Shown here: positions 1,110-25,637 of the stretch, piece after piece
Numbering within the stretch: the first letter of the stretch is position 1
How the letters are laid out: each line of letters opens with the position of its first letter
DNA from: Elusimicrobia bacterium RIFOXYA12_FULL_51_18
GTDB lineage: Bacteria > Elusimicrobiota > Elusimicrobia > Elusimicrobiales > UBA9959
NCBI GenBank assembly: GCA_001800245.1
Contig: MGVA01000028.1
Span: forward strand, 66,328-130,327
Length of the DNA: 64,000 bases
Direction of reading: 5' to 3'
The notes under the pieces: generated by a model
Told to the model about the DNA's origin: nothing
What the model saw: only the letters and a program-made list of their open reading frames with translations
The model's database searches: none
Translations under genes and position numbers: made by a program

Positions 1110-1187
1110 AGTAACGGTGTTTAGGAGCGTGCCGGGACGCAATTTGAGCGCGTCGCGATTTTTTTGATATTCAATGGGGGATTTTCC

Positions 1188-10200: not shown

Positions 10201-13200
10201 GAATCCCATGAACTGGCAGGGCGGAGTCCTGCCCGCCTACGGAGATAACGTGGTCTTCGGCGGCACCGGCGCAAAGGATTGTTTGTGGAATCTTAACATA
10301 ACCGTGAACAGCCTGTATGTCTATCCGGAATACAACGGCCGTATCAGCCTGATAAATCCTCCGGGCATGAATATCAACAGGCTTGAGATAACGGACTATC
10401 TCTATATACGCGGCGGCACTTTTGACATAGCGGGCAATATCCTGGCCGCTTCTTCAATAACCGTTTCCGGCGGCGTCCTTGACCTGGGCGCCGGGCTGGG
10501 CGACTTGCAGGTAGGCCCGGGCGGCTTGAACGTTACCGGCACGGGAACGCTCGCCTTTACCGGTAATACATCCGCATCTATTGATCCGATGGCGGAGGGA
10601 TATTACCCGATATCTATATTCGGCGGCACCGTGACAGTGAACGGCGCCGGCCTTCTTAATATACGTGGTTCCAACGGCATCGCAATATCCAACTCTCCGG
10701 CGCTTACGTTCAACAATGTCAGGATAATGAATCTGGCGTCCGGCGCCACCGCTCTCAGCATTACCGCGGCTTCGGGCGATTACACATTCGATAATTGGGG
10801 TTTTGATGCGTCGGTCACCAATAATGTTGGCCTGACCGGTTCCGCCATGATTTATATGAACAACGCTTCCGGAGCTCAGATGGGGACCCCGCATGAACTT
10901 TCGGACCCGGATAACAGGATAATCTGGAATCCGGACGGCGGCGGGACCGGCAGTATCGGAGGCAACCTTAGTTATTCCGGAAATAAGACCGGAAACTATA
11001 TAGTTTTTGTTACCACGAATATGACCAGTTCCAGCTTTGCCGCCATTAGCACTTCCGCGTCAACCGGCTATTCGTTCGGAAGTCTGAAAGCTCCCGCCAC
11101 TTACTATCTGTGGGCCACCAGGGACTCAAATTCTGACTATGATTATACGGCTTCCATCATGGAACCAATCGGCTGGCTGAATGCGCCGGTGTATTTATCC
11201 ACTGGTGCGGCTCTTACGCGAAACATGACGCTTTTGGATACGGGGAAGATCACAGGAACTATAGACAAGAGCGCCACTAACCAGGCCGGCATGACCATAG
11301 TGGAATTGCATACTCAGCCGCTTTCCGCCACTTCGTTGTTCGATTGGCAGGTCCTGGACCAATGGGAGTATCAATATCTGGTCGCCGCTCCGTCCGCCAC
11401 CTATACCGTGCTGGCTTATATAGACGTCAACCAGAATGAACGCTTCGATCCGGCTTTTGAAAGCTCCGGTACCGCGACCGATGTGCTTATTTCAACAGGC
11501 GGGACGGTTACGAATAATATAGCCCTTAATTCCGGTTCCGTGGAGGCCGGTGGAATTGTGGGAATTTCCACCACCGCTTTCTTTGCCGGAAGTTTTATAG
11601 GCAAGACAAATTCCGCGGCTGTGATGAAGTTAGGCCTTGTTTCAAACGGCGGAGAGGCCACGGTTGGAAGTCTGAGGTTCAGCTCCATTGGAACGGCCGA
11701 AGCCGGCAAGTTCAGTCTTTCCGTTTACAAGGATGACGGCAACGGACTGTTCGATAATGATCCTTCCATACCGAATTCAACGTACAATGATATGTTGCTG
11801 GGAAACGGCTATTTCGGAGGAGTTTCTTCACAGGCCGCTATCTCATTCACGAACGAAGTCGGACTGCTCAGCAGCGGCGCTACGCAGTATTTCTTTGTTA
11901 TGCTGACGGCCACCAACCCGGTTTCAGGCTCCACCATAGGGGCCGTGCTGCTTTCTTCGGACAGCGTGGGCTTGTTGAAGGGGACTATGGCCGGTCAAGC
12001 CATATACCCGGTTTCCACGCCTCTCAGGACCGTCAGTGATTCCATAGATGTCTGGTCAACCCTTTATACGGGTGTTGACGTATATTCCGGTCAGACCATA
12101 AATATTTCCGCTTCCGGCCAGTGGCAGGTTAATGGCGTTTATGTTTATGCCACCGGCTCCGGCAGCAATATGTACAACGGCGTGTATCCGAACGCTCCCG
12201 TGGGAGCCCTGATCGCCCAGGTCGGTTATAACTCGCCTTGGTTCTATGTAGGCACTTCCACAAGTTTCGTTTATTCCGGCATGACAGGGCCTCTTATGCT
12301 GCATATGAACACCAATTATGACTTCGGTACCATGATGTGGAATTATCCCAACGGGGTGAGCGGCCAGCTTTACGTGAATTATTCGGTGGAGGGTGACACG
12401 CACGCCGTGATTTCCGGCTTAGTCACCTACGCCGGAGGCACAAACGGCACCATTATTGTAAATGCCGGCAGCCGCAGGCCCGATCTTAGCAGGTATGAGT
12501 GCCGGGTCATGACTCCCTCGGAAAGCTGTATGGTCGACGTTATCGTCGGGACCCATACTATACCCAGTCCGCTTGCCGGCGGTACCAGTTATTACACTAT
12601 GGGCGGCATTGAGATACCACAGGGAGATTCCGACAACGTAATTATTTCCGCTTACATTCAGGAAGATCCTTCCCAACGCGGGATCGCTCCCACGCAAGTC
12701 GGGATACGGATAGGCCAGGCTGCGACAGGCGGGGATGTTACGGTCTATTCCGGCGCGGGCACGCTGAACGGTAACATCAGCTATTCAGGCGCTCAGCAGT
12801 TCGGGAATACCGTGGTGGCTTTGTTCACCAACCTGGAAGGCGGGAACCCCGTAGTTTCCACTACGCTGGCGGAAGGAGTTTCGGCTTTCAGTATAGCTGA
12901 TATACCCGGGCCGGCCCTTTATTATGTGGTCGCTTTCAGGGACTTGGATTATGACAATAAACCCAGCGGTCCCGAACCGTTCGGATATTACGGGTCAACC
13001 GGTCCTATTTCTCTGATGAGTTCCAACGCAGTCCAGTTGAATGTGGCTTCAAACGTCGTTACAAATGTGCCGGCCACGATTAACCTGCTGGATATGGGAC
13101 AGATCAACGGACGCATCGACCTTGGCAGCCTTCAATTCGGAATAAGGGTTTTGGTGCAGGCCGGTCACGGCATTCCCGGAAGTTCGTTCGTGAAAGAGAA

Positions 13201-16200
13201 CCAGTCGGAGTACTTCGCCCAGCCTTGCTGGTGGTACGGCTGTATTAACGAGGTCTATTACAATGTCGGAACTTTGTCTCCGGCCGAGGATTACACGGTC
13301 GTCGCTTTCCTGGATAAAAACGGAAACAATCAGTGGGATTGCGACGCGGAAAATTGTGAAAGATTCGCTTCCAGCCGCAATAATATATCTGTGACCGCTA
13401 ACGGCATGGCCCAGGCGGATATAGCGCTGACCGCCGCTCCGGTTCCCGATACGCCGCAATCGTTCAGCGGCACGGTCCTGAGCACGGACGTTATACTTTG
13501 GGCGTGGAACGATGTGCCGACCGAGACCAGTTACTATCTGACCACTTCCACAGGCGGTATATTGCATGTCCTGGATGCGAACACCACCCAATACAGCGAA
13601 ACAGTGGCCGGCGGGGCTAATACTATAAGTTCCGTGCGCGCCGTCAGGGCGCATAACTATGCCGGAGACAGCCCGCTTTCATCCATGATCGCGCTTTATA
13701 CGAAAGCCGCCGCTCCCGAGCTTGTTGTCAACGGAGTTAGCGCCTCTGAAGTGAATCTTGGCGTTTCCAGCGCTACTAACCGTTTCGTTTTGCAAAGAAG
13801 CACCGCTATTGCCGGTGGCTATATCGTCGTTTACAGCACTTATACGGGGACTTCTGTCACTTCACGCGTTGACGCGGGATTGACCCCCGGCACCACCTAT
13901 TACTACAGGGCCTTGAACTTCAACGCCCAGAGCGTGGCAAGCGCTTATTCCGCGGTTGCGATCGCGACCACCACCGCTCCCACCGGTTATTTTATAAGGG
14001 GCACGGTCAATTATCCCGGCCTTATGACGGGCAATATAACCCTGCTGGCGTCCACGCAGGAGTTCCTGTCCAATCCCATCACGGTGGCCTTATCCGGCAA
14101 TACCACGCAGGCCTATTATCTGACCGGGCTAGCCAGCAATACGTCTTATTACATACGGGCGTTCGTGGATTATAACGCCGACAACGCCAGACAGATATAC
14201 GAAGACGCCAGCGCTATTGCCGGCCCCATTTACCTTGCAGCCTCCGGTCTTTCCGGCCAGGACATAAACATTGTACGCAGCACCGCTATTCCGGCTTCTC
14301 CATCCGGACTGGTCGCTACGCCCGGCTTCCAGCGGGTGAGTCTGCAGTGGATAGCTTCCGCCGCCTCCAATCTGATCGGTTATGAGGTTTTTAGGAGCAC
14401 AAATGCGTCCTTCTCTTCGGCGGTAACAAGGGTTTCCGGAGATAGTTTTGTCACCGGCGCCTCTTTCACGGACTTTAACCCCCTGGCGGGAGTTCCGTTG
14501 TACTACAGGGTCAAGGCCGCGGATTGGGGGCGGAACCGCAGTTTGCCCGCCGCGCTTTCCTCTCCGGTCAATGTGTCCGCCGGCGGCAGTATAACCGGCA
14601 CGGTCTATGCCGTGGATACCTCCACGCAGGGGCTTTATCATGTGCGCGTTTCAACCACGCCGGACGCCAATGTGCCCAGCCTTATGGATATTATGGTTTC
14701 CACCGCGCCCGCTACGTATACCGTTTCGGGTCTGCCGGACGGTTCCTATTACGTTCGCGGATATCGCGACTTTAACAATGATTTTAAACAGGACCGCAGG
14801 CAGGAGCCTTCCGGCACTCATGGGGGCATAGCCAGGCCTTTTGATATTTATATGACCCAGGGCAATAGTCTTACCGGCATAGATGTTAAGGTCTGCAACA
14901 GGTTGCCGCTGGCGGTGGGGGTTTCCACAAGAGTTACGATTTCAGCCACCGGCTGCGAGGCCCTGGACCGGGGTCCCGGTTATTATACCAGGGTCTACAC
15001 GCTGGAGGCCGGTTACGGCGCGGGCAAGGTGCCTACAGGCTCGCAGATCACCGTGTACGCGAACAAGACCGATCCGTTGGACGGCATAAACGACGCTTAT
15101 CTGTATCTGGTGGGTCCTACCGGAGATGTCGTAGCAAGGGATGACGATAGCGGCGGGGATATGAACTCCAGGATACAATATACCCTGGACACTCCCGGAG
15201 TTTATCTTATAGAACCCACTTCCTACGCTTCCGGCCTGTCCGGAGCCCTGAACGTGGGCTTTGATGTGACAGGCGGATTCGCCGGCAGGATCTCCGGCAC
15301 GCTCAGTTACTCCGGTTCTATGACCGGGCCTTCGGTCGTGCAGATTTACGAAACTCTGACGGCTAATTCATGGCCGGTAATGATGTCCTCCACCTCGGTT
15401 TCGGATTTTGAGATCATAGGGCTCAGGGACGGGAATTTCTATCTCAAGGCGTTCAAGGACGTCAACGGTAACGGGGTCCAGGACTCCTTCGAACCGTACG
15501 GCGTTTACGGCGGCACTACGGCCGTTCAGTTTTCTGTAAGCGGCGGCGTGACAAGCGCGTCGCTTGCCATAACGCTGGCGGAGCCTGCGGTCGGTTCGGT
15601 GTCCGGAAATCTATTTTATAACGGCGGGCGGACCGGTAATATCAGAATAGAGGCGGCAAGGCAGCGCGGCAGCGACCAGTACGATCTGGAAGTGGTGAAA
15701 TTCTCCACTGTGACGCGCGGAAATGAAACCGTGGATCAGGCATATATTCTTGACCTGCTGGCGCCCGCTACCGATTACACTATCAGGGCTTTCGTTGACG
15801 AGAACAGCAATAACCAGAAAGATGTGATGGAGCCGTTCATTTCCGCGCGTTCTATCACAGTTACCGCCAGCACCCAAACTACCGGGGTTAACCTGAACAT
15901 CGTAAATCCGGGCAGTGGAGGAGTCGGCAACTCTATCCTGAGCGGCGCGATCACCTACACTCCGATTCCTGGCCAGAACTATATTTCAACCGGCAATATC
16001 TGGGTAGGCTGGGCAAGCGACCAGAGCTTTGAGAACATCTTGTATTCGCAGGTGGTTTCAACGTTTACCCAATATGCTTCCTCCACCGCGTGGACCTATT
16101 CCAAGAGCGATGTAATGGGCGGGGCCACCTATTATATGGCTTCGTTCCTGGATCTCAACGGCAACGGTCAGCCGGATGATAGGAACGGCGAACCGATGGC

Positions 16201-19200
16201 TATGTATTCGATCGATGGGGAGATGGCTCCTGTATCTGTGCCTACCTCATCGACCGTGGTCAGGAATCTAGCTCTTACCCCTCCTTCAACCGGCTATCTC
16301 AGCGGTGTTGTGCATTATTACGGCGCTATGACGGGGTCCGCTAAAGTCAGCGCGTGGAACCAATCCTGCGAGAACACTTCCGAACAGAAGGATTGTTCCG
16401 CTGAAAACTACTTCGCTATTATCAACGGAGTTACGGATTACCCTTTCACGCTGCGTTTCCTGAATCCGACCACAAGCTACCAGTTGTCGTCCGTTATCGA
16501 TCTGAACGGTAATCAGATGACGGATCCGGGCGAGCCGAACGCTTATCTTCCCGGCTACATTGTGAGCGGTTCCACTACCGCAGCGCTCACTATCATGGAT
16601 CCGGGCCAGATGGCCGGCGGGAATATAGGCGAGATCCGCGGCATCGTCACTTACGGCGGACATCAGGGCGGGGATAAGATAGTAAGGCTGTTCCGCGGCG
16701 GTTTCTACGGGGCTCCGGTTCAGACCATGAATATAAACGCCGGCTGCCTCGGCAATTCCTGCAGCTTCGCTATCAGCGGCTTGTCTTACGCCGCCGATTA
16801 CTATGTGGACGCTTTTGTGGACTCCAGCTTCAACGGGATGTTTGAGCCGGCTTTTGAGCCGCACGGCGGCATAACATCGGCTATAAGTGTATCCCAGGCC
16901 GTGCCGCAGTCGCGCAATAATTACATGACCCTGGAAGATCCGGGAACGGGCGCCGATATTCCGACCGGCAGCAATCTGCTTTCCGGAATGGTTAGCGTAC
17001 AGGGCGGCACTCCGTCCGGCACCGTGCGCGTACAGCTGTTCAGGTTCGTAAGCACGGTAAGCGTGATGGAAGTACCTATAAGGGTGGCAACCTACCCGTA
17101 TGTATCCTCCGCGAATCAAACCCCGATAAGTTATTCGTTCGATAATCTGCCCAGCGACGGCGGCGCCAGGTATATCGCGCAGGCTTATGTGGATTCCAAC
17201 TCCAACTTCACTCCGGACAGGAACGAGGCCTGGGGGCAGACCAAAGCCCTGAACCAGGGAATTTCAACCTCGGATCCGGCGGAGCAGAAGAACTTCTCCG
17301 TCTGCGCCAGGACTTCCATTGACCAGGGACAGAACCTGAACGGATCGCTGGAAACTTCCGATTGCGTGAGCTCGGACAGGGGCCAGGCGTCGGCTTTCGT
17401 GGACTACTATTCCTTCGGCGGCCGCGCCGGAGACATAGTCACGCTGGAAATGACAGGGACCGGGTTCTCGGACACCTATCTTTATCTGTACGGCCCGTCC
17501 ATGCGTAGTACCGAGGCTTTTACCAGTTATAATCTGGCCGCTTTTGATGACGATGGCGGCGGTAATTACAATTCCAAGATAAACGGCTATACGCTTACCG
17601 CCGACGGCATATATACTATAGGCGCCGCTTCGTACGGCAATAACATAACCGGCGCTTATACTTTGTCTATGCGCGTTTCCGGCGGGACCAACGGTTCGAT
17701 AGCCGGAACCGTCCGTTACAACGGCACACAGGGCGGCAATATCAACGTGGGCCTGTTCAACTCTAATCCCATGGAAGCGCAGAACGTGAACTCTATCATG
17801 GGTGCATCCATGCAGGTTCCGGGTGCGTTCCTGTTCGGCGATCTGCCCAGCGGAACCAGTTATTACATAGCCGGTTTCGTGGATGTCAATGGGAACAACT
17901 CCCCCGATCAGGGAGAGGACTTCGGGATGTATCCCAATATTATCACGCTCAGAGCCGGCCAGAACGTCACCGGGACGCTGCTGGAAATAAATCATAGCAC
18001 CGACGTGGTCTTCGTGGGCGGGGCCGGCCAGGGAACCATTTCCGGCGCCATAAGTTATACCGGTATCTCCACCGCGACATCTCTGGTCATAGAGATGTGG
18101 AATACCGCCACGTTCAGGGGCACTCCCATCGGTATACGGACCATGCAGCTCACCGGCGAATGGCCGGTAAATTATGATCTTCAGGTGCCCGGAGACCAGA
18201 CCTATTATCTTAAGGCGTTCCTTGACGCCAATAATAACAGGATGCCCGAACCCAGCGAAGCTAAAGGCGCTTATACTCCTAACAATGAGGGGCCTGAACC
18301 TATCTATGTCGGTTCGGCGGCTTATATCACGGATCGTAACTTCACGCTGTATGACCCCGGTCAGACATTAGCGGGCGGCGCCCAGGGCGTGTCCGGAGAA
18401 GGCTGGGCCTCGGTTCTTCCTTCGTTGGTTGCGGCCGGCAGCCAGTTCACGTCCACTGTGACCGTGCGCGTAACCGGTCTTGGTGAAGGCGGGGTAGTCA
18501 TGGTCGGTATGCCCAACAATCTTTATAGTTCCCTGCAGACGGGCTGCTCCGGGTGTCCCGGATATGTTCAGGTCAGTTCGGACGGGACGCATTATAGCGC
18601 GGCGCAGCTTATCTCAAATAACGCGCAATATCGTGTGCCGATGGGCCAGAGCCTGGCGGCCGGCGCTTCCGTATACTTTGCGATAAATAATCTGTACGCG
18701 CCGTGCCAGGGAGGCATGACCGGCCAGCAGTCCGATAACAGGCTTGTGTTCCACGTAGGCACTTCCAGCAACGCTTTCACAGGGCCCCAGCCGCTAGTCA
18801 GCGGCGAGCCTACGGCCGTGCTGGGGGCGGGCGCTCCCCAGAATCTGAGTTTCCGTCTGGCCGATAATATGAACGGCGCCAATATGGCCGTTCCCAACGG
18901 CGAGGTTACCCCCATGCTGGCCGAAGCGAGGGATAATTGTTGGAATCTCGCTCCGATGTCCTCGGTTTATATCGCGACCGTAAGCGCCTATTTTTACAAC
19001 ATGGCCACCTACGGTTATGATAACGACGCGACGGTCAAATTCTCGACATGGAATGCCGAAGCGGATTCTGTTACAGCTACGAGCGCGACCGTGCGTTTTG
19101 AGGCTGACAGTTCCACCGGGGTCTTCTATGTTAAGCCGACGGCCCAGGGCTATAGGAACATAGGTCTGTCGTACGATCTCGCTTGGTCCAACACGTTCTA

Positions 19201-22200
19201 TATGGGCGTGCAGGTTATGGCCGGAGGGGGTATCAGCGGCGCGAACGTTTCCACCGGCGCCTATAACAACCTGTCGGCCAGTTCCATGACCGTGACCATA
19301 ACCCCCAACGGCGACGGAAATGCGGACAGGGCGTATGTCAACTTTATCATGGGCGACGCGAATATGGGCTGGCATGTGCTGGTTTCCTCCAGGCCTTTCA
19401 GAACGGGCGTGTCCCCGACTCCGGTCTGGGAGACCTGGGGCTGGGGCCAGCCGAATCCGGGCCAGATATTCTGGGAAGGCAGATATAATCCGTGGATGAA
19501 CTTCGGCGGCGTGGTTCCGACAGGGGCCTACTTCGTCAGAATAGAGGCCGGCAGTCTTAGGAACGATACCCTCAGGATAAATGTAGTGGTTCCCCAGGTT
19601 TCAGGCCAGGTCACCGACGCCGGAACCAGTCCTCAGAGGCCGCTTGAAGGTGTGATGGTGAATACGTTCGGCGCTTTCGGCTGGGGCCAGGCCACCACCG
19701 ATTCCAACGGTAATTTCTCCATCCCCGGTCTCGCGGCAGGCCAGTATAACTTCCAGTTCAGCAAGGAAGAGTACGGCATGGTGAGCTCTCAAACGGTAGT
19801 CGGAGTAAACGGCGCCACGGTTAACGCCAGCATGCGGCGCGCGCCCGCGCTTGTGATTATTCCTTCGCTGGGCAACGGCACTACCCAGCAATATGACCAA
19901 TGGGGCTGGATAAACGTTCATACCTCGGATTGGAGCCGCGTCTATAACGGCAGCCTCAGAGTGCAGGCCGGTACCACCACTATCGACGACGGCGGAAGAT
20001 GGGACGCGTCCACGAACCAGTTCGTTACCCGCAGGAGGATAAGGTTCGATGTCGAAGCGGCGACGTATACGGTGGAGGCTGAGTTGACCGGTTACGGCCG
20101 GGTAAGTTCCACGGTTTATGTCGGTTCTTCAGGACTTGAATTGACTCTTCCTTCTTTCGTCCGCAAAGCCAATTTGTCCGGCCTTGTGAGACTGCCGGTC
20201 GGCGCGCCTAACACGACCGGCGTCTGGATCTCCGTCAACGCCCTGCCCGTGGTTCTTTCCAGTTCCATAGCGGGCGGCTGGGGCGGCATCTGGCTTAACC
20301 AGGGAGTGACTTCCGGTACTTACAATATATTCGGCGTTGACTCCGGGAGTTATACGATCCGCGCGCAGGTGCCCGGTTATTCCGGAAAAAGTATAGGCCC
20401 GGTGTTCGTTTCAACCAGCGATATAAATACGGGCCTTGATATCCCCGCCTTCGATGCCGGTTCGGTGATACGGGGAACCGTTACTGTAGTGGGGGATACC
20501 CACTTGTTCCAGAAGCCCGACTGGGCTAATAATTGGGAGCAGCCGGTCAAGGTTAGCGTAAACGTCTGGTCGCCGCAGACCTATACCAACGGCTGGACCG
20601 AGATCTACGTGGCTACAAGCGCGGGACAGGCCCAGAGTACCTTCACTATAACCGGCCTTGACGCAGGCACTACTTACCAGTTGTTCGCGAACATTGAATA
20701 TAACCGTGACGACGGCAATACGGAGTTCACCGTTCCCGGCGGCTTCCCTAAACAGGTCTATGTGGATACGACCAGTCTCTCCGGCAATAGTGAATTCTCG
20801 TTCGCGCTGGCTTCCGGGGCTATATTCGGAACCATTATTCTGCCTACGACGCCCGCGGTTGATTTTAGTTCGGTGTCTATGAGTATCAGGATCACGCAGT
20901 CCGATAACCCGTACAGCGTAGGGCAGAGCTTCTCCATACTTGATATAACGGCCCCGTGCGGCGGGCAGAATAGCAATTGTCTACCCGGGGTTACATTGTA
21001 TGCGTCCAGCGCGACCTTCAGCGTATCCGGCATGGAAACCCAAAGCATAGAGGTAACTTTCACTTACAGGCTGACGGGCATGAGCAGGACCGCTTTGGTC
21101 AACGTCATAAGCGGCTCCACCGCCACCGTAGTGGTGGATTTGAGGAACCAGACCTATGCCATAGCCGGTTCTATAACCAACCAGGTTTCCAACCCGCTGT
21201 TCAATACCATGGCTCTGGCTATAGCCTATTCCTCGTATACTACGCCTTCGGGTTATCCCTCCATCCCCGCCAATAGCATGCCTATAGAGGCTGTGCGCAG
21301 GGACCTGAGCGAATTCGGCGCGGCCATGACCTCCGCGGTCTTTGACCCCGCTAAGACACGCGTTGGGTTCATAACTCTGGCCGGCACCTATACTATAAGA
21401 GGCCTGCAGGAAGGCGTCTATGTGATAAGGACCCAGCCTCTGAAGACCTGCGCCACTTGTGAAATGCTTGTGGCCGCTCAGGAAAAGATAGTGACCATAA
21501 GAGGACTGGACTACACGAATAATAGCCGCGTTATCGTGGACGGATTGTCGGTAAGCACCGGCGCCGTAAACTTTACGCTGATAGACGGCTGGAACGTAAG
21601 CGGTCTGATCTCCATAGATAATAACGTGCAGGACGCAAGGACGCTGGCGCTGACGCTCCGGAACAGGCGCAACGAGGTGGTACGGTCCACCACGGCCGCC
21701 CTGGGCAACTCCGGAACCAATTCCCTGGCCAACTCGGTGGCGTATTCCTTCACCAGGCTGCCCGGCGGAGAGTTTTACACGCTGGAGGTCAGAGATACGA
21801 AAGATTCCACAGGGACCATAAAGTATGCGGCGGCGCCGCTCAGGTTCCCGGACATCGCTTCATCGCCCAATGGTATGCAGTCCGATCTGAGCAGTCAGAA
21901 TGTGACCCTTAAACAGGGCGCTATGGTTACGCTTAAATTGCGCGACGTCAATTCGGCCAGTCTGCTGACGCAAACCAATTACACGCTGCTGGCGGCTAAC
22001 TTCAGCTGCTTCGCGATGGCTAATCCGTGGGTGCAGGGCGGCTATTATCTGGCCGCCTCCAGTATCTCCAACAGGCCCATAGAAGCCGACGGCACGGTGC
22101 GTATCGGCCCCGTGATGCCGAACGTTTATTACGACGTCAAGTGCGAACAGTCCAACTGGGACGTGGGATATATGAGGCAGGGCGCGCAGAATTATTCCCC

Positions 22201-24568
22201 GGCCGTAGTGGCCGGCATCCGGCCTTCCGCCGGGGAGACCCGCGATCTCGGAGTGCTTGACCTGAGGCAGGGTCAGGCTATGAGCGGAATTGTGAGTAGC
22301 CGCGACGGTTTCCCGCTGGTAAATATCAAGGTGACGGCCAAGCCTTCGTATATCGAAAACCCGATAACTATTCAGGCTATGACCAACAGGGACGGGAGAT
22401 ACACGCTGTGGGTGTCCACGTATATGTCCCGTTACTTCGATATAACCGCGGCCCCGCGCGAACAGAACCAGACCGTGGACGTGAGCACGATAATCTACCG
22501 GGAAAGCGTGTATACGGCGATAGATCTTACAAGATCCACCACCGTGGACTTTACGCTTGACGCCATGCTGGGCGGAGTCGAGGGCAGCGTTGTCACCATT
22601 GACAGCGGAGTCTTATCCTATCCCTTTGGCGATATGCAGGGATATCCAGCGGCGGCGTTGTTCATACAGCCGTACGGCACGGTTCCAAAGAATAATCCTA
22701 TAGGGGACATAGAAGCGATCACCGAACCCGGCGGAGGATTCTCCGTGCCGCTCACTACCGGAAGCTATACGATGAGGATCGTGAGCCTGGGCTATTCCGT
22801 GCCGGTAACCACATTTGCCGTGACGGGCTCGGGCATGGTTAACCTGGGCGCGACAGTTCTCCCCAAGGGCGGAACCGTAACCGGCCAGATAAGGAAGCCG
22901 GATTCCACCGCGGTCGGAGGCTATACGGAGCCTAACAGCGACGAGATCAGCCTGGTTACCGCCGCTAACGACGGCTTTACGGAATTCGTAATGGGAACGG
23001 TGGTGAGCGACCCTGTTTCCAGGACTATAACCCGGTATGCCATCTCCGGCTTTAAGCCGAACATAGACTACTCCCTGGCTCTGATGTCGGATAATAACGA
23101 TATGACATTCCCGTCGGAGGGAAGCGTGCGTTTCAGCCAGGATGAGTCAACCGCCACCAAATCCGTAAACCTGACCTTCAGGCCCAGCCACGGCGACTGC
23201 ATGGTGGTTTCAAAGAGGGGCGGCTCCGGTATGAGGTTGAAGTTCGTTTGCTCTAAGGCGTTCCGGAACAGGACCGCGGAAGACAATAACCTTACCCTTA
23301 TCCTGGCTACCAGTTCGGTTGATTCCTCCGGGCACGCCGTCTCCGCTCCGGATGGGTCAGGGGCGTTGTCGGATATAGAATTGTCGGCGGACCGGAAACA
23401 GTTCACGGCCCTCTACAGCACGGCCGCTTCAGAAGGCATGTTCAGTATAAGGCTGGCGGCATACACCAGCGAGATAGACCAGGCCACCGGCGATAACTTC
23501 ATGATAGACAGGGTTTACGATTTCTATACGGGCGTCAAGTCCGTTGCCGCTTCAAAGTTGAACAACATGCGCGGCGGACGCGTGGAACTAGAAGGCGAGG
23601 AAGGGGACGATGAACGCGGCGCGGTCGAATTCCCGCCCGGCACTTTCGCCCTGGACGGTTCCGCTTACGCGCTTGTTGCCACGACCGTGACGGTGGAAAT
23701 GCTAAAGGCGGATGATCTGGACGGCGCCACGGCGGGGACCTCCGCTCTAGCCGCCGGAAAGTCCGGCGGCGGCCGGCTTGCCTCAGTTCAACGCACCCTC
23801 CCGAAGGGGTTGTATAACGCCATGCAGGCTCTGCGGGAACAAAGGGTCGGCAACTACAAGACGAGAGCCGTCTCCGGTTCCGGCTCCACCGTCAATCCGT
23901 TCAGTTCCTTCTATGACATCTCTCTGCCGGCCGGTATAAGCCATGTGTTGCAGCAGCCGGCCAGGATAACGTTGAGTTACAATACCGCCCTGTCTTCCGG
24001 CACGGACGCGTCAGATCTCAACGTCTATTACTATAATCCCAACAGCCAGCGGTACGTGTTGGAGAGCAGGGAAAGGACCTTGGACCGGGATAACGGCACT
24101 ATTTCTGTGAATGTGGACCACCTCTCGGTCTTTGTGGTCCTGGCGCAGGCGCCGGCGGATGGAGCCACGGCTTACGCTTATACGGGAAAAGAATTGAAGG
24201 CGCATAACTTCCCGAATCCGTTTAATAATACCCGGACGAAATCAATAAGTCTTAACGACGCCATCGCCACAGGCGGTTATACGGCCGCCGCGGCGCCGTG
24301 CACTACTCAGGGTACCTGTATAAGGGTGTTCGTGCCGGCAGGCACAAGCGGGGATATGACCCTTAAAGTGTTCAACATCGCCGGCGAACTGGTGAGAGAG
24401 ATGCAACTGACCGGCTATTCCGCCGGCACCACCAACGTGTGGCCCTGGGACGGGAAGAACGGTTCGGGCGCCGGAGTGGCTTCAGGCGTCTATATCGGCG
24501 AAGTTAAAGTTGGAGGCGATAAGGCCTTCTTTAAGATGGCTGTAATCAAAGCTTCGAAGTATCAGTAG
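4244..24568 (+). CDS. Giant (6774 aa) secreted modular surface protein with C-terminal T9SS-CTD/FlgD-Ig-like domain
   Basis: Uninterrupted 20.3-kb ORF; signal peptide (probable start 4274). Recognisable parts: beta-propeller repeats, 2 Big_5-like, 2 LecA-like, FN3, 2 PPC-like, ~14 DxNxN Ig repeats, carboxypeptidase-regulatory-like domains, and 'FPNPF...VFNIAGELVR...WDGKN...ASGVY'. Confidence 0.9.
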   Translation: MSVKNKGEIIMTKTRINLFRKFLLAAVLAFIPIRAMGVWPGSAVNYLPGAAGQGPVDSFYSIQDETGGIYNVWTATAPAHPNYHQVYVQHINMNGVPDWFTRVSTSANYQDLYVDPKLSYDGQTALNVAWGEHVDSTAGSAKVMKVKRFISSGSIVWGGVGGIQVSSGIIDGGTMEISSDGGPVFMMGYPVGSGLKMVVQKLQNSGGGCAWPGIGDCVTGASGTELYSAANTDSIGNVALVPSSSGMLIVVSTGVVSGDWAIYAHRLNETNGSPVWSSTLVSGTGARGGIVNGISDGSNGAYIVWDDARSGYKNVYATRIDNDGAVVTGGAWSLGANAGVQFTNFTDDINNMHVVPTADGFALTCSTVTGQDQRFLFGTMSASGVILSSGVTAGLEPLYSQAVCRDSACFVAGYKGVPEFTAYVARITPGNSVSLYPMFAGGDFPYNIALSSVAGGIAASWTSSAGAQWARYAPATVFDRRQVSGLVTFSGVYEPNTVLTVWLSTSADFRGVTASTHIPNPSTTQSYTISDIPSGIYYMALTASFDWQVVASTHPWGVLGQLGTPTAVDVTIGDVSGNNVAMTDGHVQPNPWSPESQAPSIVSCVENFANGGSCRINGNSTYGNAIAVDGSDNSYIIGTNLTDSAIVKYDASGVIVSSITAKYAVFNDIKISPVNGDLYVAAQGLVSGIRVFRYAASNLSFVSSITVSGYQGARQLDFGADGEVYVVSAVDNGGSYGNDIRVVRLSANLSSVTGDWSDTSNGPDQGIGIHVSGGDVFVTGFQHPVSTDQVVVIRLSTATTMSKLDTGTAGTSPVVFAEGEGFNHFRVTSDATGVYAAYSYLLNTSTQTAIYRFDRSNMSAGYSSATMAGAAAFGDLKSSGSKFFVVAQSDGNQARVTRYDAATFAAEASTRASVPAAYGMAPGGMAFGTGGEVYLSGALPDAGDSASIGITKLDSVAGPVPGEEELITVYVSTADASPAAFTTGVEAAALRMDIYTVSSSTSISNVRVSVNPNGPYTRAAYVGFYVDSNRNDIWEPGTDALISSAAVTSAFVDLPVAAGIINNDPYGSFITLTPSASALGSSINLGIDSTASFTVGGVMAEQAVYPIRSDARLVQPPVSFSGGGLNGPSASILNGTAMDQGVDVKAYGSSVYAIGIAYPNSVLIKYSTSTGQVAALTGLSGVDFTALAVNANGIYVTGKGYYAPGFVTIKYAHDLTIVSSVTLAGASSAYGITLDGAGRVYVIGDNAGEGGSNNDYKIVEYNSDLVQQGAAHIWNAGGVDYGKGIAVSDDGSLIYATGLSLMGGATYYATAKFDGAFVFVSSTAYPGYADDHIDTVDIVQNSTSGAVYLAGSANHEAMLLAKYNSNLVLQSTAGVYSPAYAVGAGIAQDSVGNVYIAGGYNAGGAAHDENTVVKFSPALVRQSSATTFSAYGFEPGGLALDGYGYPYVTGVLLVSGSSSTWDMKTVRLAQLADVVAAKPYITVTVPYGGAVDVSSGIRYIDITFSEPVTPASLNAGGDGLSPYLMFSKPGGYHNPRFTGFSNLYGNTYRIAMVDVDLDSNTVYTVEAANFESGSAVVMDPASFSFTTTGSAPAGKPSITATNPTAGATGVSLGLTAIDITFSEPIVLDAGDIGGKINLFVGAEDRYNLLSTFTYVSGNTYRLELKNGPLAAGTVYRVELSNFANESAAVIDPDSFSFTTEAGATTVNLLVQNAASPYMRYYSTNSALKLSLWTDSGSSQWSAMTVNLGGTVVPCSDVDALYVYRDSGDGAYSDTNDSYVGYASPCNGGTFNFYTPETIGVSTSVYFVTVSPRSSAIGKTARLTITSTAAFTIGGSDVMHSLTGMPANSAIATVMNYIYASEMGSYNYDTNISVIAGQALQINATGYWNYDATHQVNADGSGECSSTCPLPSAYRGALIARGDSTPWFVVGRSTTIVLGYSDTLRLAMNDDDYNDNTGIMMFEKAAQAVTKIWTGAACGGVGCNEAGNPMNWQGGVLPAYGDNVVFGGTGAKDCLWNLNITVNSLYVYPEYNGRISLINPPGMNINRLEITDYLYIRGGTFDIAGNILAASSITVSGGVLDLGAGLGDLQVGPGGLNVTGTGTLAFTGNTSASIDPMAEGYYPISIFGGTVTVNGAGLLNIRGSNGIAISNSPALTFNNVRIMNLASGATALSITAASGDYTFDNWGFDASVTNNVGLTGSAMIYMNNASGAQMGTPHELSDPDNRIIWNPDGGGTGSIGGNLSYSGNKTGNYIVFVTTNMTSSSFAAISTSASTGYSFGSLKAPATYYLWATRDSNSDYDYTASIMEPIGWLNAPVYLSTGAALTRNMTLLDTGKITGTIDKSATNQAGMTIVELHTQPLSATSLFDWQVLDQWEYQYLVAAPSATYTVLAYIDVNQNERFDPAFESSGTATDVLISTGGTVTNNIALNSGSVEAGGIVGISTTAFFAGSFIGKTNSAAVMKLGLVSNGGEATVGSLRFSSIGTAEAGKFSLSVYKDDGNGLFDNDPSIPNSTYNDMLLGNGYFGGVSSQAAISFTNEVGLLSSGATQYFFVMLTATNPVSGSTIGAVLLSSDSVGLLKGTMAGQAIYPVSTPLRTVSDSIDVWSTLYTGVDVYSGQTINISASGQWQVNGVYVYATGSGSNMYNGVYPNAPVGALIAQVGYNSPWFYVGTSTSFVYSGMTGPLMLHMNTNYDFGTMMWNYPNGVSGQLYVNYSVEGDTHAVISGLVTYAGGTNGTIIVNAGSRRPDLSRYECRVMTPSESCMVDVIVGTHTIPSPLAGGTSYYTMGGIEIPQGDSDNVIISAYIQEDPSQRGIAPTQVGIRIGQAATGGDVTVYSGAGTLNGNISYSGAQQFGNTVVALFTNLEGGNPVVSTTLAEGVSAFSIADIPGPALYYVVAFRDLDYDNKPSGPEPFGYYGSTGPISLMSSNAVQLNVASNVVTNVPATINLLDMGQINGRIDLGSLQFGIRVLVQAGHGIPGSSFVKENQSEYFAQPCWWYGCINEVYYNVGTLSPAEDYTVVAFLDKNGNNQWDCDAENCERFASSRNNISVTANGMAQADIALTAAPVPDTPQSFSGTVLSTDVILWAWNDVPTETSYYLTTSTGGILHVLDANTTQYSETVAGGANTISSVRAVRAHNYAGDSPLSSMIALYTKAAAPELVVNGVSASEVNLGVSSATNRFVLQRSTAIAGGYIVVYSTYTGTSVTSRVDAGLTPGTTYYYRALNFNAQSVASAYSAVAIATTTAPTGYFIRGTVNYPGLMTGNITLLASTQEFLSNPITVALSGNTTQAYYLTGLASNTSYYIRAFVDYNADNARQIYEDASAIAGPIYLAASGLSGQDINIVRSTAIPASPSGLVATPGFQRVSLQWIASAASNLIGYEVFRSTNASFSSAVTRVSGDSFVTGASFTDFNPLAGVPLYYRVKAADWGRNRSLPAALSSPVNVSAGGSITGTVYAVDTSTQGLYHVRVSTTPDANVPSLMDIMVSTAPATYTVSGLPDGSYYVRGYRDFNNDFKQDRRQEPSGTHGGIARPFDIYMTQGNSLTGIDVKVCNRLPLAVGVSTRVTISATGCEALDRGPGYYTRVYTLEAGYGAGKVPTGSQITVYANKTDPLDGINDAYLYLVGPTGDVVARDDDSGGDMNSRIQYTLDTPGVYLIEPTSYASGLSGALNVGFDVTGGFAGRISGTLSYSGSMTGPSVVQIYETLTANSWPVMMSSTSVSDFEIIGLRDGNFYLKAFKDVNGNGVQDSFEPYGVYGGTTAVQFSVSGGVTSASLAITLAEPAVGSVSGNLFYNGGRTGNIRIEAARQRGSDQYDLEVVKFSTVTRGNETVDQAYILDLLAPATDYTIRAFVDENSNNQKDVMEPFISARSITVTASTQTTGVNLNIVNPGSGGVGNSILSGAITYTPIPGQNYISTGNIWVGWASDQSFENILYSQVVSTFTQYASSTAWTYSKSDVMGGATYYMASFLDLNGNGQPDDRNGEPMAMYSIDGEMAPVSVPTSSTVVRNLALTPPSTGYLSGVVHYYGAMTGSAKVSAWNQSCENTSEQKDCSAENYFAIINGVTDYPFTLRFLNPTTSYQLSSVIDLNGNQMTDPGEPNAYLPGYIVSGSTTAALTIMDPGQMAGGNIGEIRGIVTYGGHQGGDKIVRLFRGGFYGAPVQTMNINAGCLGNSCSFAISGLSYAADYYVDAFVDSSFNGMFEPAFEPHGGITSAISVSQAVPQSRNNYMTLEDPGTGADIPTGSNLLSGMVSVQGGTPSGTVRVQLFRFVSTVSVMEVPIRVATYPYVSSANQTPISYSFDNLPSDGGARYIAQAYVDSNSNFTPDRNEAWGQTKALNQGISTSDPAEQKNFSVCARTSIDQGQNLNGSLETSDCVSSDRGQASAFVDYYSFGGRAGDIVTLEMTGTGFSDTYLYLYGPSMRSTEAFTSYNLAAFDDDGGGNYNSKINGYTLTADGIYTIGAASYGNNITGAYTLSMRVSGGTNGSIAGTVRYNGTQGGNINVGLFNSNPMEAQNVNSIMGASMQVPGAFLFGDLPSGTSYYIAGFVDVNGNNSPDQGEDFGMYPNIITLRAGQNVTGTLLEINHSTDVVFVGGAGQGTISGAISYTGISTATSLVIEMWNTATFRGTPIGIRTMQLTGEWPVNYDLQVPGDQTYYLKAFLDANNNRMPEPSEAKGAYTPNNEGPEPIYVGSAAYITDRNFTLYDPGQTLAGGAQGVSGEGWASVLPSLVAAGSQFTSTVTVRVTGLGEGGVVMVGMPNNLYSSLQTGCSGCPGYVQVSSDGTHYSAAQLISNNAQYRVPMGQSLAAGASVYFAINNLYAPCQGGMTGQQSDNRLVFHVGTSSNAFTGPQPLVSGEPTAVLGAGAPQNLSFRLADNMNGANMAVPNGEVTPMLAEARDNCWNLAPMSSVYIATVSAYFYNMATYGYDNDATVKFSTWNAEADSVTATSATVRFEADSSTGVFYVKPTAQGYRNIGLSYDLAWSNTFYMGVQVMAGGGISGANVSTGAYNNLSASSMTVTITPNGDGNADRAYVNFIMGDANMGWHVLVSSRPFRTGVSPTPVWETWGWGQPNPGQIFWEGRYNPWMNFGGVVPTGAYFVRIEAGSLRNDTLRINVVVPQVSGQVTDAGTSPQRPLEGVMVNTFGAFGWGQATTDSNGNFSIPGLAAGQYNFQFSKEEYGMVSSQTVVGVNGATVNASMRRAPALVIIPSLGNGTTQQYDQWGWINVHTSDWSRVYNGSLRVQAGTTTIDDGGRWDASTNQFVTRRRIRFDVEAATYTVEAELTGYGRVSSTVYVGSSGLELTLPSFVRKANLSGLVRLPVGAPNTTGVWISVNALPVVLSSSIAGGWGGIWLNQGVTSGTYNIFGVDSGSYTIRAQVPGYSGKSIGPVFVSTSDINTGLDIPAFDAGSVIRGTVTVVGDTHLFQKPDWANNWEQPVKVSVNVWSPQTYTNGWTEIYVATSAGQAQSTFTITGLDAGTTYQLFANIEYNRDDGNTEFTVPGGFPKQVYVDTTSLSGNSEFSFALASGAIFGTIILPTTPAVDFSSVSMSIRITQSDNPYSVGQSFSILDITAPCGGQNSNCLPGVTLYASSATFSVSGMETQSIEVTFTYRLTGMSRTALVNVISGSTATVVVDLRNQTYAIAGSITNQVSNPLFNTMALAIAYSSYTTPSGYPSIPANSMPIEAVRRDLSEFGAAMTSAVFDPAKTRVGFITLAGTYTIRGLQEGVYVIRTQPLKTCATCEMLVAAQEKIVTIRGLDYTNNSRVIVDGLSVSTGAVNFTLIDGWNVSGLISIDNNVQDARTLALTLRNRRNEVVRSTTAALGNSGTNSLANSVAYSFTRLPGGEFYTLEVRDTKDSTGTIKYAAAPLRFPDIASSPNGMQSDLSSQNVTLKQGAMVTLKLRDVNSASLLTQTNYTLLAANFSCFAMANPWVQGGYYLAASSISNRPIEADGTVRIGPVMPNVYYDVKCEQSNWDVGYMRQGAQNYSPAVVAGIRPSAGETRDLGVLDLRQGQAMSGIVSSRDGFPLVNIKVTAKPSYIENPITIQAMTNRDGRYTLWVSTYMSRYFDITAAPREQNQTVDVSTIIYRESVYTAIDLTRSTTVDFTLDAMLGGVEGSVVTIDSGVLSYPFGDMQGYPAAALFIQPYGTVPKNNPIGDIEAITEPGGGFSVPLTTGSYTMRIVSLGYSVPVTTFAVTGSGMVNLGATVLPKGGTVTGQIRKPDSTAVGGYTEPNSDEISLVTAANDGFTEFVMGTVVSDPVSRTITRYAISGFKPNIDYSLALMSDNNDMTFPSEGSVRFSQDESTATKSVNLTFRPSHGDCMVVSKRGGSGMRLKFVCSKAFRNRTAEDNNLTLILATSSVDSSGHAVSAPDGSGALSDIELSADRKQFTALYSTAASEGMFSIRLAAYTSEIDQATGDNFMIDRVYDFYTGVKSVAASKLNNMRGGRVELEGEEGDDERGAVEFPPGTFALDGSAYALVATTVTVEMLKADDLDGATAGTSALAAGKSGGGRLASVQRTLPKGLYNAMQALREQRVGNYKTRAVSGSGSTVNPFSSFYDISLPAGISHVLQQPARITLSYNTALSSGTDASDLNVYYYNPNSQRYVLESRERTLDRDNGTISVNVDHLSVFVVLAQAPADGATAYAYTGKELKAHNFPNPFNNTRTKSISLNDAIATGGYTAAAAPCTTQGTCIRVFVPAGTSGDMTLKVFNIAGELVREMQLTGYSAGTTNVWPWDGKNGSGAGVASGVYIGEVKVGGDKAFFKMAVIKASKYQ

Positions 24569-24677: not shown

Positions 24678-25637
24678 ATGAAGACCATTAAAAAAATGAT
24701 TTTTGCGTTAGGGGCGGTTTTCACCGCCCAGGCGCTTTGCGTCTGCGCGGTTTTTGCCGCATCGAGCGAAGCCGGGACCAGCGCGGCTCAGTTCCTGAAG
24801 CTGGGAGCCGGTTCGAAGGCCGGGGGCGTGGCTGAAGCTTATACGGCCGCCGCGGATGACGTCTATTCCGCCTATTATAATCCGGCCGGACTTACGCGCA
24901 TGCCGTCCCCGGAGTTTGCCGCCCAGCATGTCAGTTATTTTCAGGACATAAGCTATGAATTCCTGGCTTTTGCCTTTCCTTTCGACAAGCAGGACGGCGT
25001 GTCCAGGCAGGCGCTGGCCCTCTCGATCTATAATCTGTCGGCCAGCGGCCTGGAGACAAGGACGGAAGATACCCTTCTGGCCTCGGGGCTTTTCGATTCG
25101 TCCGAATCCGCTTACGCGTTCAGCTACGCTTACCGCATGAAAAAGAATTTAGGCCTTGGCGTCACGGCGAAGTATATCCGGGAAAAAATAGACACCGAAT
25201 CCGCCGGCGCGGCGGCGATGGATGCCGGCCTGTATTATAAGCCGCTTGAGGACAGGCCTTTGGATATAGGGCTTGCCGTCAGAAATTTCGGTTCCAAGCT
25301 CAATTTCGGCGGCGGCCGGGATCCTTTGCCGCTGGGCGGGGTTCTGGGATTGGCTTATACCTTCATGCCGGGCCTGAAGGCGGATATAGACTTTGTCCAG
25401 TACAGGGACACGGATCTTATTGTGGCCGGCGGAACGGAATATTCTCGCGATTTTAAATATGATCTGTCCGCGGCCCTGCGTCTTGGATATTCCACGCATA
25501 ATAAGGACGTGGGGGGGCTGAAAGGCATCGCCGCGGGGGCTGGCCTTAAGTATTCACGTTTAAGTTTTGATTTCGCCTGGGTTCCTTTCGGAGATCTGGG
25601 CAATACTTTCCGCTATACCCTTTCGGTGAGATTTTAA
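24678..25637 (+). CDS. PorV/PorQ (FadL-like, UPF0164) family outer-membrane protein
   Basis: 'GTSAAQFLKLGAGSKAGGVAEAYTAAADDVYSAYYNPAGL' hatch motif, signal peptide, terminal Phe. Confidence 0.85.
   Translation: MKTIKKMIFALGAVFTAQALCVCAVFAASSEAGTSAAQFLKLGAGSKAGGVAEAYTAAADDVYSAYYNPAGLTRMPSPEFAAQHVSYFQDISYEFLAFAFPFDKQDGVSRQALALSIYNLSASGLETRTEDTLLASGLFDSSESAYAFSYAYRMKKNLGLGVTAKYIREKIDTESAGAAAMDAGLYYKPLEDRPLDIGLAVRNFGSKLNFGGGRDPLPLGGVLGLAYTFMPGLKADIDFVQYRDTDLIVAGGTEYSRDFKYDLSAALRLGYSTHNKDVGGLKGIAAGAGLKYSRLSFDFAWVPFGDLGNTFRYTLSVRF

Follow-up and report, generated by a model that had tools for sequence, protein, structure and literature searches.

A predicted self-cleaving ZU5/GAIN-type joint ahead of a type IX-like tail and a PorV/PorQ-family barrel gene in a giant protein of an Elusimicrobiota bacterium

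The giant gene and its C-terminal module

The stretch of DNA analyzed here, referred to as the window, comprises 64 kb (64,000 nucleotides) of contig MGVA01000028.1 of the groundwater organism Elusimicrobia bacterium RIFOXYA12_FULL_51_18 and harbors a giant open reading frame (ORF) of 6774 codons. The encoded protein ends in a beta-sandwich domain with a His-Leu-Ser (HLS) turn, predicted to be a site of self-cleavage, and in a C-terminal domain (CTD) resembling those of cargo proteins in type IX secretion systems (T9SS). The gene is directly followed by that of a PorV/PorQ-family outer-membrane barrel. Microbial domains of the GAIN-like kind have been named MAIN (Microbial Autoproteolysis INducing) by Brogan & Rudner (bioRxiv 10.64898/2026.05.12.724683). 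The features of the giant gene and of the adjoining barrel gene are the following.

4244..24568, + strand: giant ORF, adhesin-like, with many beta-sandwich repeats (Pfam Big_5, CarboxypepD_reg, PPC, DUF2141, FlgD_ig)
4244..4354, + strand: probable Sec signal peptide, a basic stretch followed by hydrophobic FLLAAVLAFIPI and then RAMG (translation, by eye)
23576..24142, + strand: ZU5/GAIN-B/MAIN-type beta-sandwich domain, residues 6445-6633 (AlphaFold2 with alignment A1, VIA-align, homologues)
23711..23908, + strand: predicted insert of ~65 residues within the domain, of low confidence, with two short helices (AlphaFold2 model)
24119..24127, + strand: His6626-Leu6627-Ser6628, predicted catalytic turn, with the predicted scissile bond at 24124/24125 (sequence, conservation, model)
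24125..24142, + strand: last strand of the domain, SVFVVL (model strand 190-194; aromatic column F/Y in 153/154 rows)
24143..24196, + strand: linker from the sandwich domain to the CTD (no regular structure, lower pLDDT, variable in A1)
24197..24565, + strand: T9SS-like CTD, starting at NFPNPF and ending with KMAVIK plus five residues (FlgD_ig, fold)
24678..25637, + strand: PorV/PorQ-family outer-membrane barrel, likely partner of the CTD (NCBIfam NF033709, synteny)

According to the Pfam scan, approximately 6400 residues of repeats precede the C-terminal module. The signal peptide call is a reading of the translation by eye and not the output of a predictor. The codons CAC-CTC-TCG at 24119-24127 encode His-Leu-Ser as residues 6626-6628, the string NGTISVNVDHLSVFVVL is found in the translation, and 147 residues extend from Ser6628 to Gln6774. 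The translation thus bears out the position, residue numbering and 147-residue remainder given in an earlier reading of the sequence (the original prediction), which had pointed to this tripeptide as an autoproteolysis-like motif. Since tripeptides of the H-[LFIVM]-[ST] class occur twice in the whole 6774-residue protein, the HLS by itself could be due to chance, and it is its position and conservation that give it significance.

Conservation of the candidate cleavage motif

In order to assess conservation, residues 6440-6652 were searched against 1.84 billion representative proteins, recovering 164 homologues at E<=1e-3, of which 103 lie at <=1e-10 and 6 at <=1e-30. The matched domain is found nearly always ~110-130 residues from the C-terminus of very long proteins. 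A word-indexed homology search with residues 6535-6642 recovered 7 close relatives only. Counts were made on the 149 proteins that re-matched locally among the 150 listed (164 in total). These give 154 domain rows, as 5 proteins carry two copies of the domain; a chitin-binding repeat protein (P0058) did not re-match locally and was excluded.

Conservation across the entire domain peaks at the His (150/154 rows). The position two residues downstream is occupied by Ser in 138 rows and by Thr in 13 (S/T in 151/154), and two residues past the Ser an aromatic is found (Phe in 132 and Tyr in 21 of the 154 rows). H-x-S/T is intact in 148/154 rows, and at least one intact copy is present in 144 of the 149 proteins. 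HFS is the consensus and the most frequent form (79 rows), followed by HAS (31), HLS (19), HFT (10), HTS (3), HMS (2), HLT (2), HYS (1) and HMT (1); the rows departing from H-x-S/T read SFS, SLS, EVS, HLA and HLG, plus one gap. Inspection of the homologues for the His and Ser, as suggested in the original prediction, thus shows them conserved, as H-x-S/T, in 148 of the 154 copies.

Fold of the sandwich domain

From a single sequence, AlphaFold2 gave no usable prediction for the last 449 residues (mean pLDDT, the predicted local distance difference test, of 35). The model considered here covers residues 6440-6774, was obtained with an alignment of 26 sequences (A1) and has a mean pLDDT of 78.9. 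It predicts a beta-sandwich whose last two strands correspond to model residues 180-187 and 190-194, with the HLS (187-189) forming the turn between them. Confidence is lowest in the insert (pLDDT <50 at model residues 54-71 and 96-109), where the two short helices are located (71-76 and 82-92). No helical GAIN-A subdomain is seen in the model of residues 6440-6774, its only candidates being these two helices.

Comparison of the model with 48,161 representative chains using VIA-align yielded as top match the ZU5A-ZU5B portion of erythrocyte ankyrin (3ud1_A, Z 11.5, root-mean-square deviation 3.4, 128 aligned residues), and a further ZU5-ANK entry was matched over 122/149 residues (3f59_A, Z 9.9). 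GAIN domains were also matched, namely those of CD97 (9mqr_A, Z 9.2; 8ikj_R, Z 8.3), CELSR1 (8vy2_A, Z 9.1), Gpr126 (6v55_A, Z 8.3) and BAI3 (4dlo_B, Z 8.2). Among the 11 listed matches covering model residues 1-201, 9 are ZU5/GAIN entries and the other 2 are axonemal microtubule entries. A second VIA-align comparison gave the same ZU5/GAIN result. The CD97 entry 9MQR bears S531A, a change that blocks cleavage at its site (PMC12519206), and the aligned ranges (model 1..196 vs 9mqr chain 367..538) would pair model Ser189 with residue 531, provided that there is no gap in the last strand. This signal was seen with VIA-align only and is absent from the Foldseek list: searched against the PDB, the two-domain model gave mostly generic two-Ig-domain matches, with PorU first.

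The structure prediction and ZU5/GAIN comparison called for by the original prediction, once run with an alignment, thus returned ZU5 at Z 11.5 and GAIN at Z 8.2-9.2. Its description of a ZU5/GPS-like beta domain is upheld by the VIA-align fold and by Pfam ZU5 and GPS matches on homologues, and had to be amended as to extent. The segment quoted as the domain (ARITLSY...LNVYYYN) represents its C-terminal half only, the predicted domain starting well ahead of it, near 23576 (residue 6445), and ending at 24142.

The same fold can be read otherwise, as that of a non-cleaving ZU5-like sandwich in which H-x-S is retained for its structural or binding value, serving as a last spacer or docking module. 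The ankyrin ZU5 domains, which are the best structural matches, are binding modules and are not known to cleave themselves. In addition, 5 of the 149 homologues have lost the His or the S/T and still keep the domain. Set against this are the rank of the His as most conserved column and the near invariance of the S/T and of the aromatic, a pattern expected of a catalytic turn rather than of a buried strand. Also, nearly all MAIN domains tested were purified as associated cleavage products, according to the preprint (bioRxiv 10.64898/2026.05.12.724683). A non-cleaving role is hence considered unlikely, albeit worth keeping in mind.

Family membership by sequence

Between residue 6176 of the giant protein and its CTD, no family was recognized by Pfam or NCBIfam. 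A single-protein search of the solved structures gave one chance match (E 1.4), the A1 profile recovered FlgD and, weakly, the PorZ tail from the same structures with nothing for the sandwich domain, and the protein atlas offered nothing usable for this domain.

Family assignment was obtained through homologous copies. In P0241 (1899 residues), Pfam ZU5 scores 26 bits (cut-off 21) at 1661-1735, within the stretch 1641-1792 recognized by the hidden Markov model (HMM) of the domain (E 1.7e-15). This stretch ends in SVDHFSYF and is followed by the same kind of tail, an HFS-plus-CTD layout. Pfam GPS scores 27.8 bits (cut-off 22.5) on the copy of P0140 that contains SHLTTF, and Pfam ZU5 reaches 55 bits (cut-off 21) in P0142, a protein in which a second copy, ending in HFS, directly precedes three SLH repeats. 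Because the Pfam ZU5 and GPS models pass on homologous copies, the sandwich domain is assigned on sequence grounds to the ZU5 superfamily, the Pfam ZU5 model giving no match to the copy in the window.

Homologues with E values of 1e-5 to 1e-12 carry other anchors, such as SLH domains (P0142, P0148, P0136) or a dockerin (P0141), and P0129 has an LPxTG-like end, identified by regular expression only. Two side observations were made on this set. In the SLH-anchored P0142, the ZU5-recognized copy (residues 1012-1080) has H-F-C at its end, which puts a Cys where the nucleophile would be. Also, P0143 and P0150 show, shortly past the domain, a Gly-rich stretch followed by C-F-I-x-T-A that resembles another C-terminal sorting signal.

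These data bear on the simplest explanation of the motif, namely that an ordinary Ig-like repeat happens to contain HLS by chance. The second occurrence of the tripeptide class in the ORF and the predominance of generic Ig pairs in the Foldseek list would be compatible with it; the conservation counts, the position of the motif in the terminal hairpin, the ranking of ZU5/GAIN entries first by VIA-align and the Pfam ZU5/GPS matches on homologous copies are not. The probability left to chance is negligible, and this explanation was discarded on account of the conservation (148/154) and the VIA-align ZU5/GAIN matches.

The C-terminal tail and the adjoining barrel

The tail consists of the last 123 residues of the giant protein. 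By sequence it matches Pfam FlgD_ig (35 bits, cut-off 27, at 24335-24505) and falls below the cut-off of TIGR04183 (18.7 vs 23 bits), and PF18962 gave no match to the tail in the window. Of the 26 members of A1, evaluated at E<=1, FlgD_ig matches 21, CHU_C 15 and Por_Secre_tail 8. In fold, the modeled tail is closest by VIA-align to the CTDs of PorU (6za2_B, Z 10.5, 22% identity) and PorZ (5m11_A, Z 9.5, 25%), followed by those of mirolase (8qb1_A, Z 8.5) and NucA (8glk_D, Z 7.6), the latter structure being that of a tail bound within a T9SS complex. The designation of this tail as a secretion CTD in the original prediction is therefore backed by a T9SS-like fold, and by sequence it passes FlgD_ig only and not TIGR04183. 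PorU and PorZ are reported to carry the two T9SS tails that stay uncleaved, with the barrel PorQ retaining PorZ at the cell surface (PMC10947112).

The layout is recurrent, as a CTD follows the domain in 131 of the 149 homologues, extending a median of 122 residues past the aligned end. The barrel gene begins after a gap of 109 bases in which no terminator or promoter was found. Its product matches NF033709 over model positions 1-326 of 326 (162 bits, cut-off 90) and remains below the equivalog cut-offs for PorQ (88 < 220) and PorV (83.6 < 250). When the module was sought by tblastn in the loci of 11 relatives it was re-found in 9, and in 8 of these 9 the barrel lies directly downstream; the ninth locus offers only ~380 bases of downstream DNA. 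In a metagenomic relative (P0033) the cargo frame runs through a garbled tail into a PorV/PorQ-like N-terminus (A1 columns 900-1068). This fusion is probably a frameshift or an assembly error, and displays the same order of cargo and barrel genes.

Census of tails and barrels in the genome

To place the pair in its genomic context, six-frame translations of the genome of origin (2.75 Mb, 69 contigs, 90% complete) were searched with HMMs built from its own copies. These searches revealed 19 PorV/PorQ-like frames, with 20-34% mutual identity, and 18 tail-bearing frames, 14 of which are directly followed by a barrel frame (on contigs C28, C47, C64, C13, C42, C34, C29, C12, C52, C69, C20, C9, C46 and C33). 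In 7 of the 18 tail frames, H-[FL]-S-x-[FY] occurs 40-76 residues ahead of the tail match. These are located on C28 (the giant ORF), C34, C42, C64, C29, C13 and C52, and the barrel is next in all 7. The domain HMM finds 4 of the 7 at E<=1, those on C34, C42 and C29 resting on motif plus position. The other 11 tail frames lack the motif. Since 7 of these 11 still have a barrel, pairing with a barrel is general and the predicted self-cleaving joint is an optional addition. Pairwise distances among tails and among barrels are correlated (Mantel r 0.47, a value reached in 28 of 5000 permutations), indicating that the tail-barrel pairs diverged as units.

The rest of the T9SS machinery was scarcely recovered. 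The PorU model matches in this genome via CTD-like ends only, GldK gives weak partial matches only (best 61.6 bits vs a cut-off of 350), and Peptidase_C25, GldM and GldL were not found in this 90%-complete genome, searches in which the control genomes were silent too. A frame of 1820 residues (G000:C31:35185-38040) shows three collinear SprA matches (74.7, 42.7 and 30.1 bits, cut-off 200) and is, by sequence, a possible shortened SprA-like translocon. Taken as a whole, the genome looks like it harbors, outside Bacteroidota, a relative of type IX secretion that is reduced and specific to each cargo.

This inventory permits two further interpretations to be weighed. In one, self-cleavage would replace PorU and the giant protein would be freed constitutively to the medium, with no lasting tether. 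In its favor, no PorU sortase domain, Peptidase_C25, GldL or GldM is found in the 90%-complete genome, and the predicted cut would fall only ~25 residues ahead of the tail start. It is opposed by the motif-less tails, 7 of 11 with their own barrel, which show that the motif is not the general handling of tails; by published MAIN fragments, which according to the preprint stay together until denatured; and by the model, in which the last strand lies within the sandwich. Release of this kind is thus improbable for the giant protein. Self-cleavage as a general substitute for PorU was rejected as a rule, the motif being missing from 11 of the 18 CTD frames.

In the other interpretation, a sortase-like enzyme would cut the tail and anchor the protein covalently to lipopolysaccharide, as in type A T9SS cargo, the joint then sitting above a covalent anchor. 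Por_Secre_tail matches in 8 of the 26 A1 members at E<=1, the 18.7 bits of the window tail on TIGR04183 and the SprA-like 1820-residue frame would be in line with such a pathway. Conversely, the 90%-complete genome yielded neither a PorU nor a C25 domain, the tail is nearest in fold to those of PorU and PorZ, which stay uncleaved, and the provision of an own barrel gene per cargo resembles the way in which cognate PorP/SprF proteins anchor type B cargo. Covalent anchoring is accordingly given about a one-in-ten standing, well within the range of the doubtful.

Upstream genes and taxonomic range

Two further genes precede the giant gene on the same strand.

1164..2867, + strand: FecR-domain protein, conserved upstream partner (Pfam FecR, 60 bits; same place in G026 and G111)
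2903..4180, + strand: 425-residue Elusimicrobiota-family protein, probably an outer-membrane beta-barrel (atlas neighbours; syntenic in G026 and G111)

The 425-residue protein, whose family is confined to Elusimicrobiota, matched no Pfam or NCBIfam family, and its structure neighbours in the atlas are BBP2_2/SlipAM-type barrels. Both genes also adjoin the giant gene in two relatives from other families, with identities of 61/55% (G026:C4, L032) and 46/36% (G111:C6, L033). As the same two upstream genes hold their place in these relatives, the FecR-domain protein, the predicted outer-membrane barrel, the giant protein and the PorV/PorQ-family barrel constitute a conserved four-gene cassette. 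FecR-like paralogues also occur near two other cassettes (C3 and C69).

All high-scoring matches bearing an organism name derive from assemblies of Elusimicrobia, Elusimicrobiota or Endomicrobiia. With this query, the domain was found in 41 of 201 genomes sampled across the phylum and in 33 of 74 genera, always within long open frames, and is almost absent from two small-genome families (1/59 and 0/63). In the sources consulted, the T9SS is described as confined to Bacteroidota.

Proposed mechanism

Starting from the observed motif, fold, conservation, domain order and gene pairing, a succession of cleavage, association, barrel binding and force release is proposed. By analogy with GAIN and MAIN domains, His6626 would activate the hydroxyl of Ser6628, which would attack the carbonyl of Leu6627. 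An N-to-O acyl shift would give rise to an ester at Leu6627, and its hydrolysis by water would leave the chain cut between Leu6627 and Ser6628, with one part ending in ...NVDHL and the other starting with the new N-terminus SVFVVLAQAPADGATAYAYTGK. The SVFVVL strand, now the N-terminus of the 147-residue fragment, would stay hydrogen-bonded in the sandwich after the cut, so that the outer part of 6627 residues would remain joined non-covalently to the 147-residue tail. The T9SS-like CTD would not be removed, and would bind the adjoining PorV/PorQ-family barrel in the manner of the Porphyromonas PorU and PorZ tails. The giant adhesin-like protein would in this manner be fixed to the outer membrane via a breakaway joint that opens under pulling force.

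The steps of this proposal are not equally secure. Judged from sequence and model, the domain is in all probability of the self-cleaving ZU5/GAIN/MAIN kind. That it actually cleaves itself is likely: the suggestion of the original prediction that the giant may cleave itself at HL/S finds support in the retention of H-x-S/T in 148/154 rows and, by analogy, in the loss of cutting caused by a Ser-to-Ala change in a published MAIN domain. The tethering of the tail by the barrel, argued from analogy, has a chance that we place slightly short of even. The proposal as a whole, comprising a self-cleaving joint, associated fragments, a barrel-held tail and release by force, is moderately favored. Between the two outcomes envisaged in the original prediction, the force-sensitive tether fits better and PorU-independent release is less likely as a general rule; the tether is preferred because published MAIN fragments stay associated and the barrel gene lies downstream, syntenic in 8 of 9 loci.

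Several points weigh against the proposed mechanism. At the level of sequence, neither Pfam ZU5 (PF00791) nor GPS (PF01825) matches the window protein at E<=1, and no sequence match to solved ZU5 or GAIN chains was obtained from it. The residue preceding the Ser varies among homologues (F, A, L), being Ala in 31 of 154 rows. GPS motifs have a characteristic Cys/Trp pattern, which is missing from this domain, as it contains no Cys and no Trp. As for structure, a ZU5 fold by itself does not imply cleavage, and the pairing of model Ser189 with residue 531 of CD97 is taken from the range ends and not from a residue-level superposition. With regard to the tether, we infer the binding of the tail to the barrel from gene order and analogy alone, and entire cassettes being duplicated can produce the Mantel correlation even if nothing binds. 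Finally, the genome being 90% complete, it may contain a PorU-type sortase that was not seen.

A more far-reaching idea, which we regard as highly speculative, is that the four-gene cassette represents either an outer-membrane counterpart of the logic of adhesion G-protein-coupled receptors (GPCRs), or a motor-less and sortase-less relative of the T9SS with an own barrel per cargo. In the former version, loss of the ectodomain would expose a tethered SVFVVL on the barrel-bound fragment, and this change would be sensed, for instance via the FecR-domain partner, so that the cell would register attachment or shear. In the sortase-less version, which is the more modest one, Elusimicrobiota would run this relative of the T9SS and self-cleavage would give regulated release.

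Comparison with known systems

The class of domain is already known, as ZU5 from a prediction made in 2012 and from a demonstration in 2026. The earlier of these studies predicted bacterial ZU5 autopeptidase domains (Zhang et al. 2012, PMC3482391). In the later one (bioRxiv 10.64898/2026.05.12.724683), the YfkN domain of B. subtilis is reported to be cut between the F and S of HFS, as determined by Edman degradation, and S1346A abolishes the cut. The two YfkN fragments co-purify and co-elute, and its ectodomain leaves the cells only after sodium dodecyl sulfate (SDS) or heat. The same preprint describes 15,000 MAIN proteins composed of a signal peptide, adhesion or enzyme domains, the MAIN domain and a surface anchor, names sortase signals, cell-wall-binding domains and SLH domains as anchors, and proposes MAIN domains as a possible Gram-positive counterpart of autotransporters. 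T9SS and Elusimicrobia are absent from its main text, as is any outer-membrane anchor of a MAIN protein, and its supplementary tables (350 Pfam families that occur with MAIN domains) may list T9SS tails.

The giant protein shares with MAIN proteins the GAIN-B-like sandwich, the H-x-S turn before the last strand, a probable signal peptide and the location of the domain between a very large ectodomain and a C-terminal anchor, and its fragments are likewise expected to stay associated. Its architecture (signal-like N-terminus, repeats, domain, tail) is that of MAIN proteins, with a different type of anchor. The published cases are Gram-positive, in contrast to the host of the giant protein, which has two membranes, a T9SS-like tail and a dedicated PorV/PorQ-family barrel. 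Other differences are the Leu before the Ser and the ~65-residue insert.

The combination, in Elusimicrobiota, of such a domain with a T9SS-like tail and a dedicated PorV/PorQ-family barrel appears undescribed in the sources consulted, with the caveat that the MAIN supplementary tables may hold cases. Self-cleaving GAIN-like joints of bacteria have so far been shown on Gram-positive cell-wall anchors only. Here, the same joint would be built into an outer-membrane anchoring system, in a phylum outside Bacteroidota and in a genome where no PorU sortase was found. If true, the idea of mechanical release would extend to bacteria with two membranes, S6628A would provide a simple handle on how Elusimicrobia hold and shed 700-kDa proteins, and the 14 pairs of this 2.75-Mb genome would point to an unstudied, reduced and cargo-specific relative of type IX secretion.

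With the GAIN/GPS region of adhesion GPCRs, the domain has in common an HL/S-type motif in the equivalent position, a subdomain B fold (Z 8.2-9.2) and the logic of a force-sensitive joint; unlike these receptors, the giant protein has no GAIN-A that could be seen in the model of residues 6440-6774, no Cys/Trp pattern, no seven-helix receptor and no Pfam GPS match. The ZU5 domains of ankyrin, UNC5 and PIDD include the best structural matches (ankyrin, Z 9.9-11.5), and Pfam ZU5 recognizes homologous copies of the domain, whereas eukaryotic ZU5 domains are cytosolic.

In the T9SS, type B tails are held by PorP/SprF-like proteins, an example being SprF, which binds the giant gliding adhesin SprB (PMC9143113, PMC12618676). 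The T9SS literature consulted for comparison offers no description of a self-cleaving joint before a cargo tail. This predicted joint ahead of the tail, the Elusimicrobiota host and the 19 barrel paralogues set the present system apart from the T9SS. What it shares with the PorZ-PorQ, PorU-PorV and SprB-SprF pairs is a retained CTD, here predicted, held by an outer-membrane barrel whose gene often neighbours that of the cargo, and among these the tail of the giant protein is closest in fold to those of PorU and PorZ of Porphyromonas gingivalis, held by PorV and PorQ, respectively.

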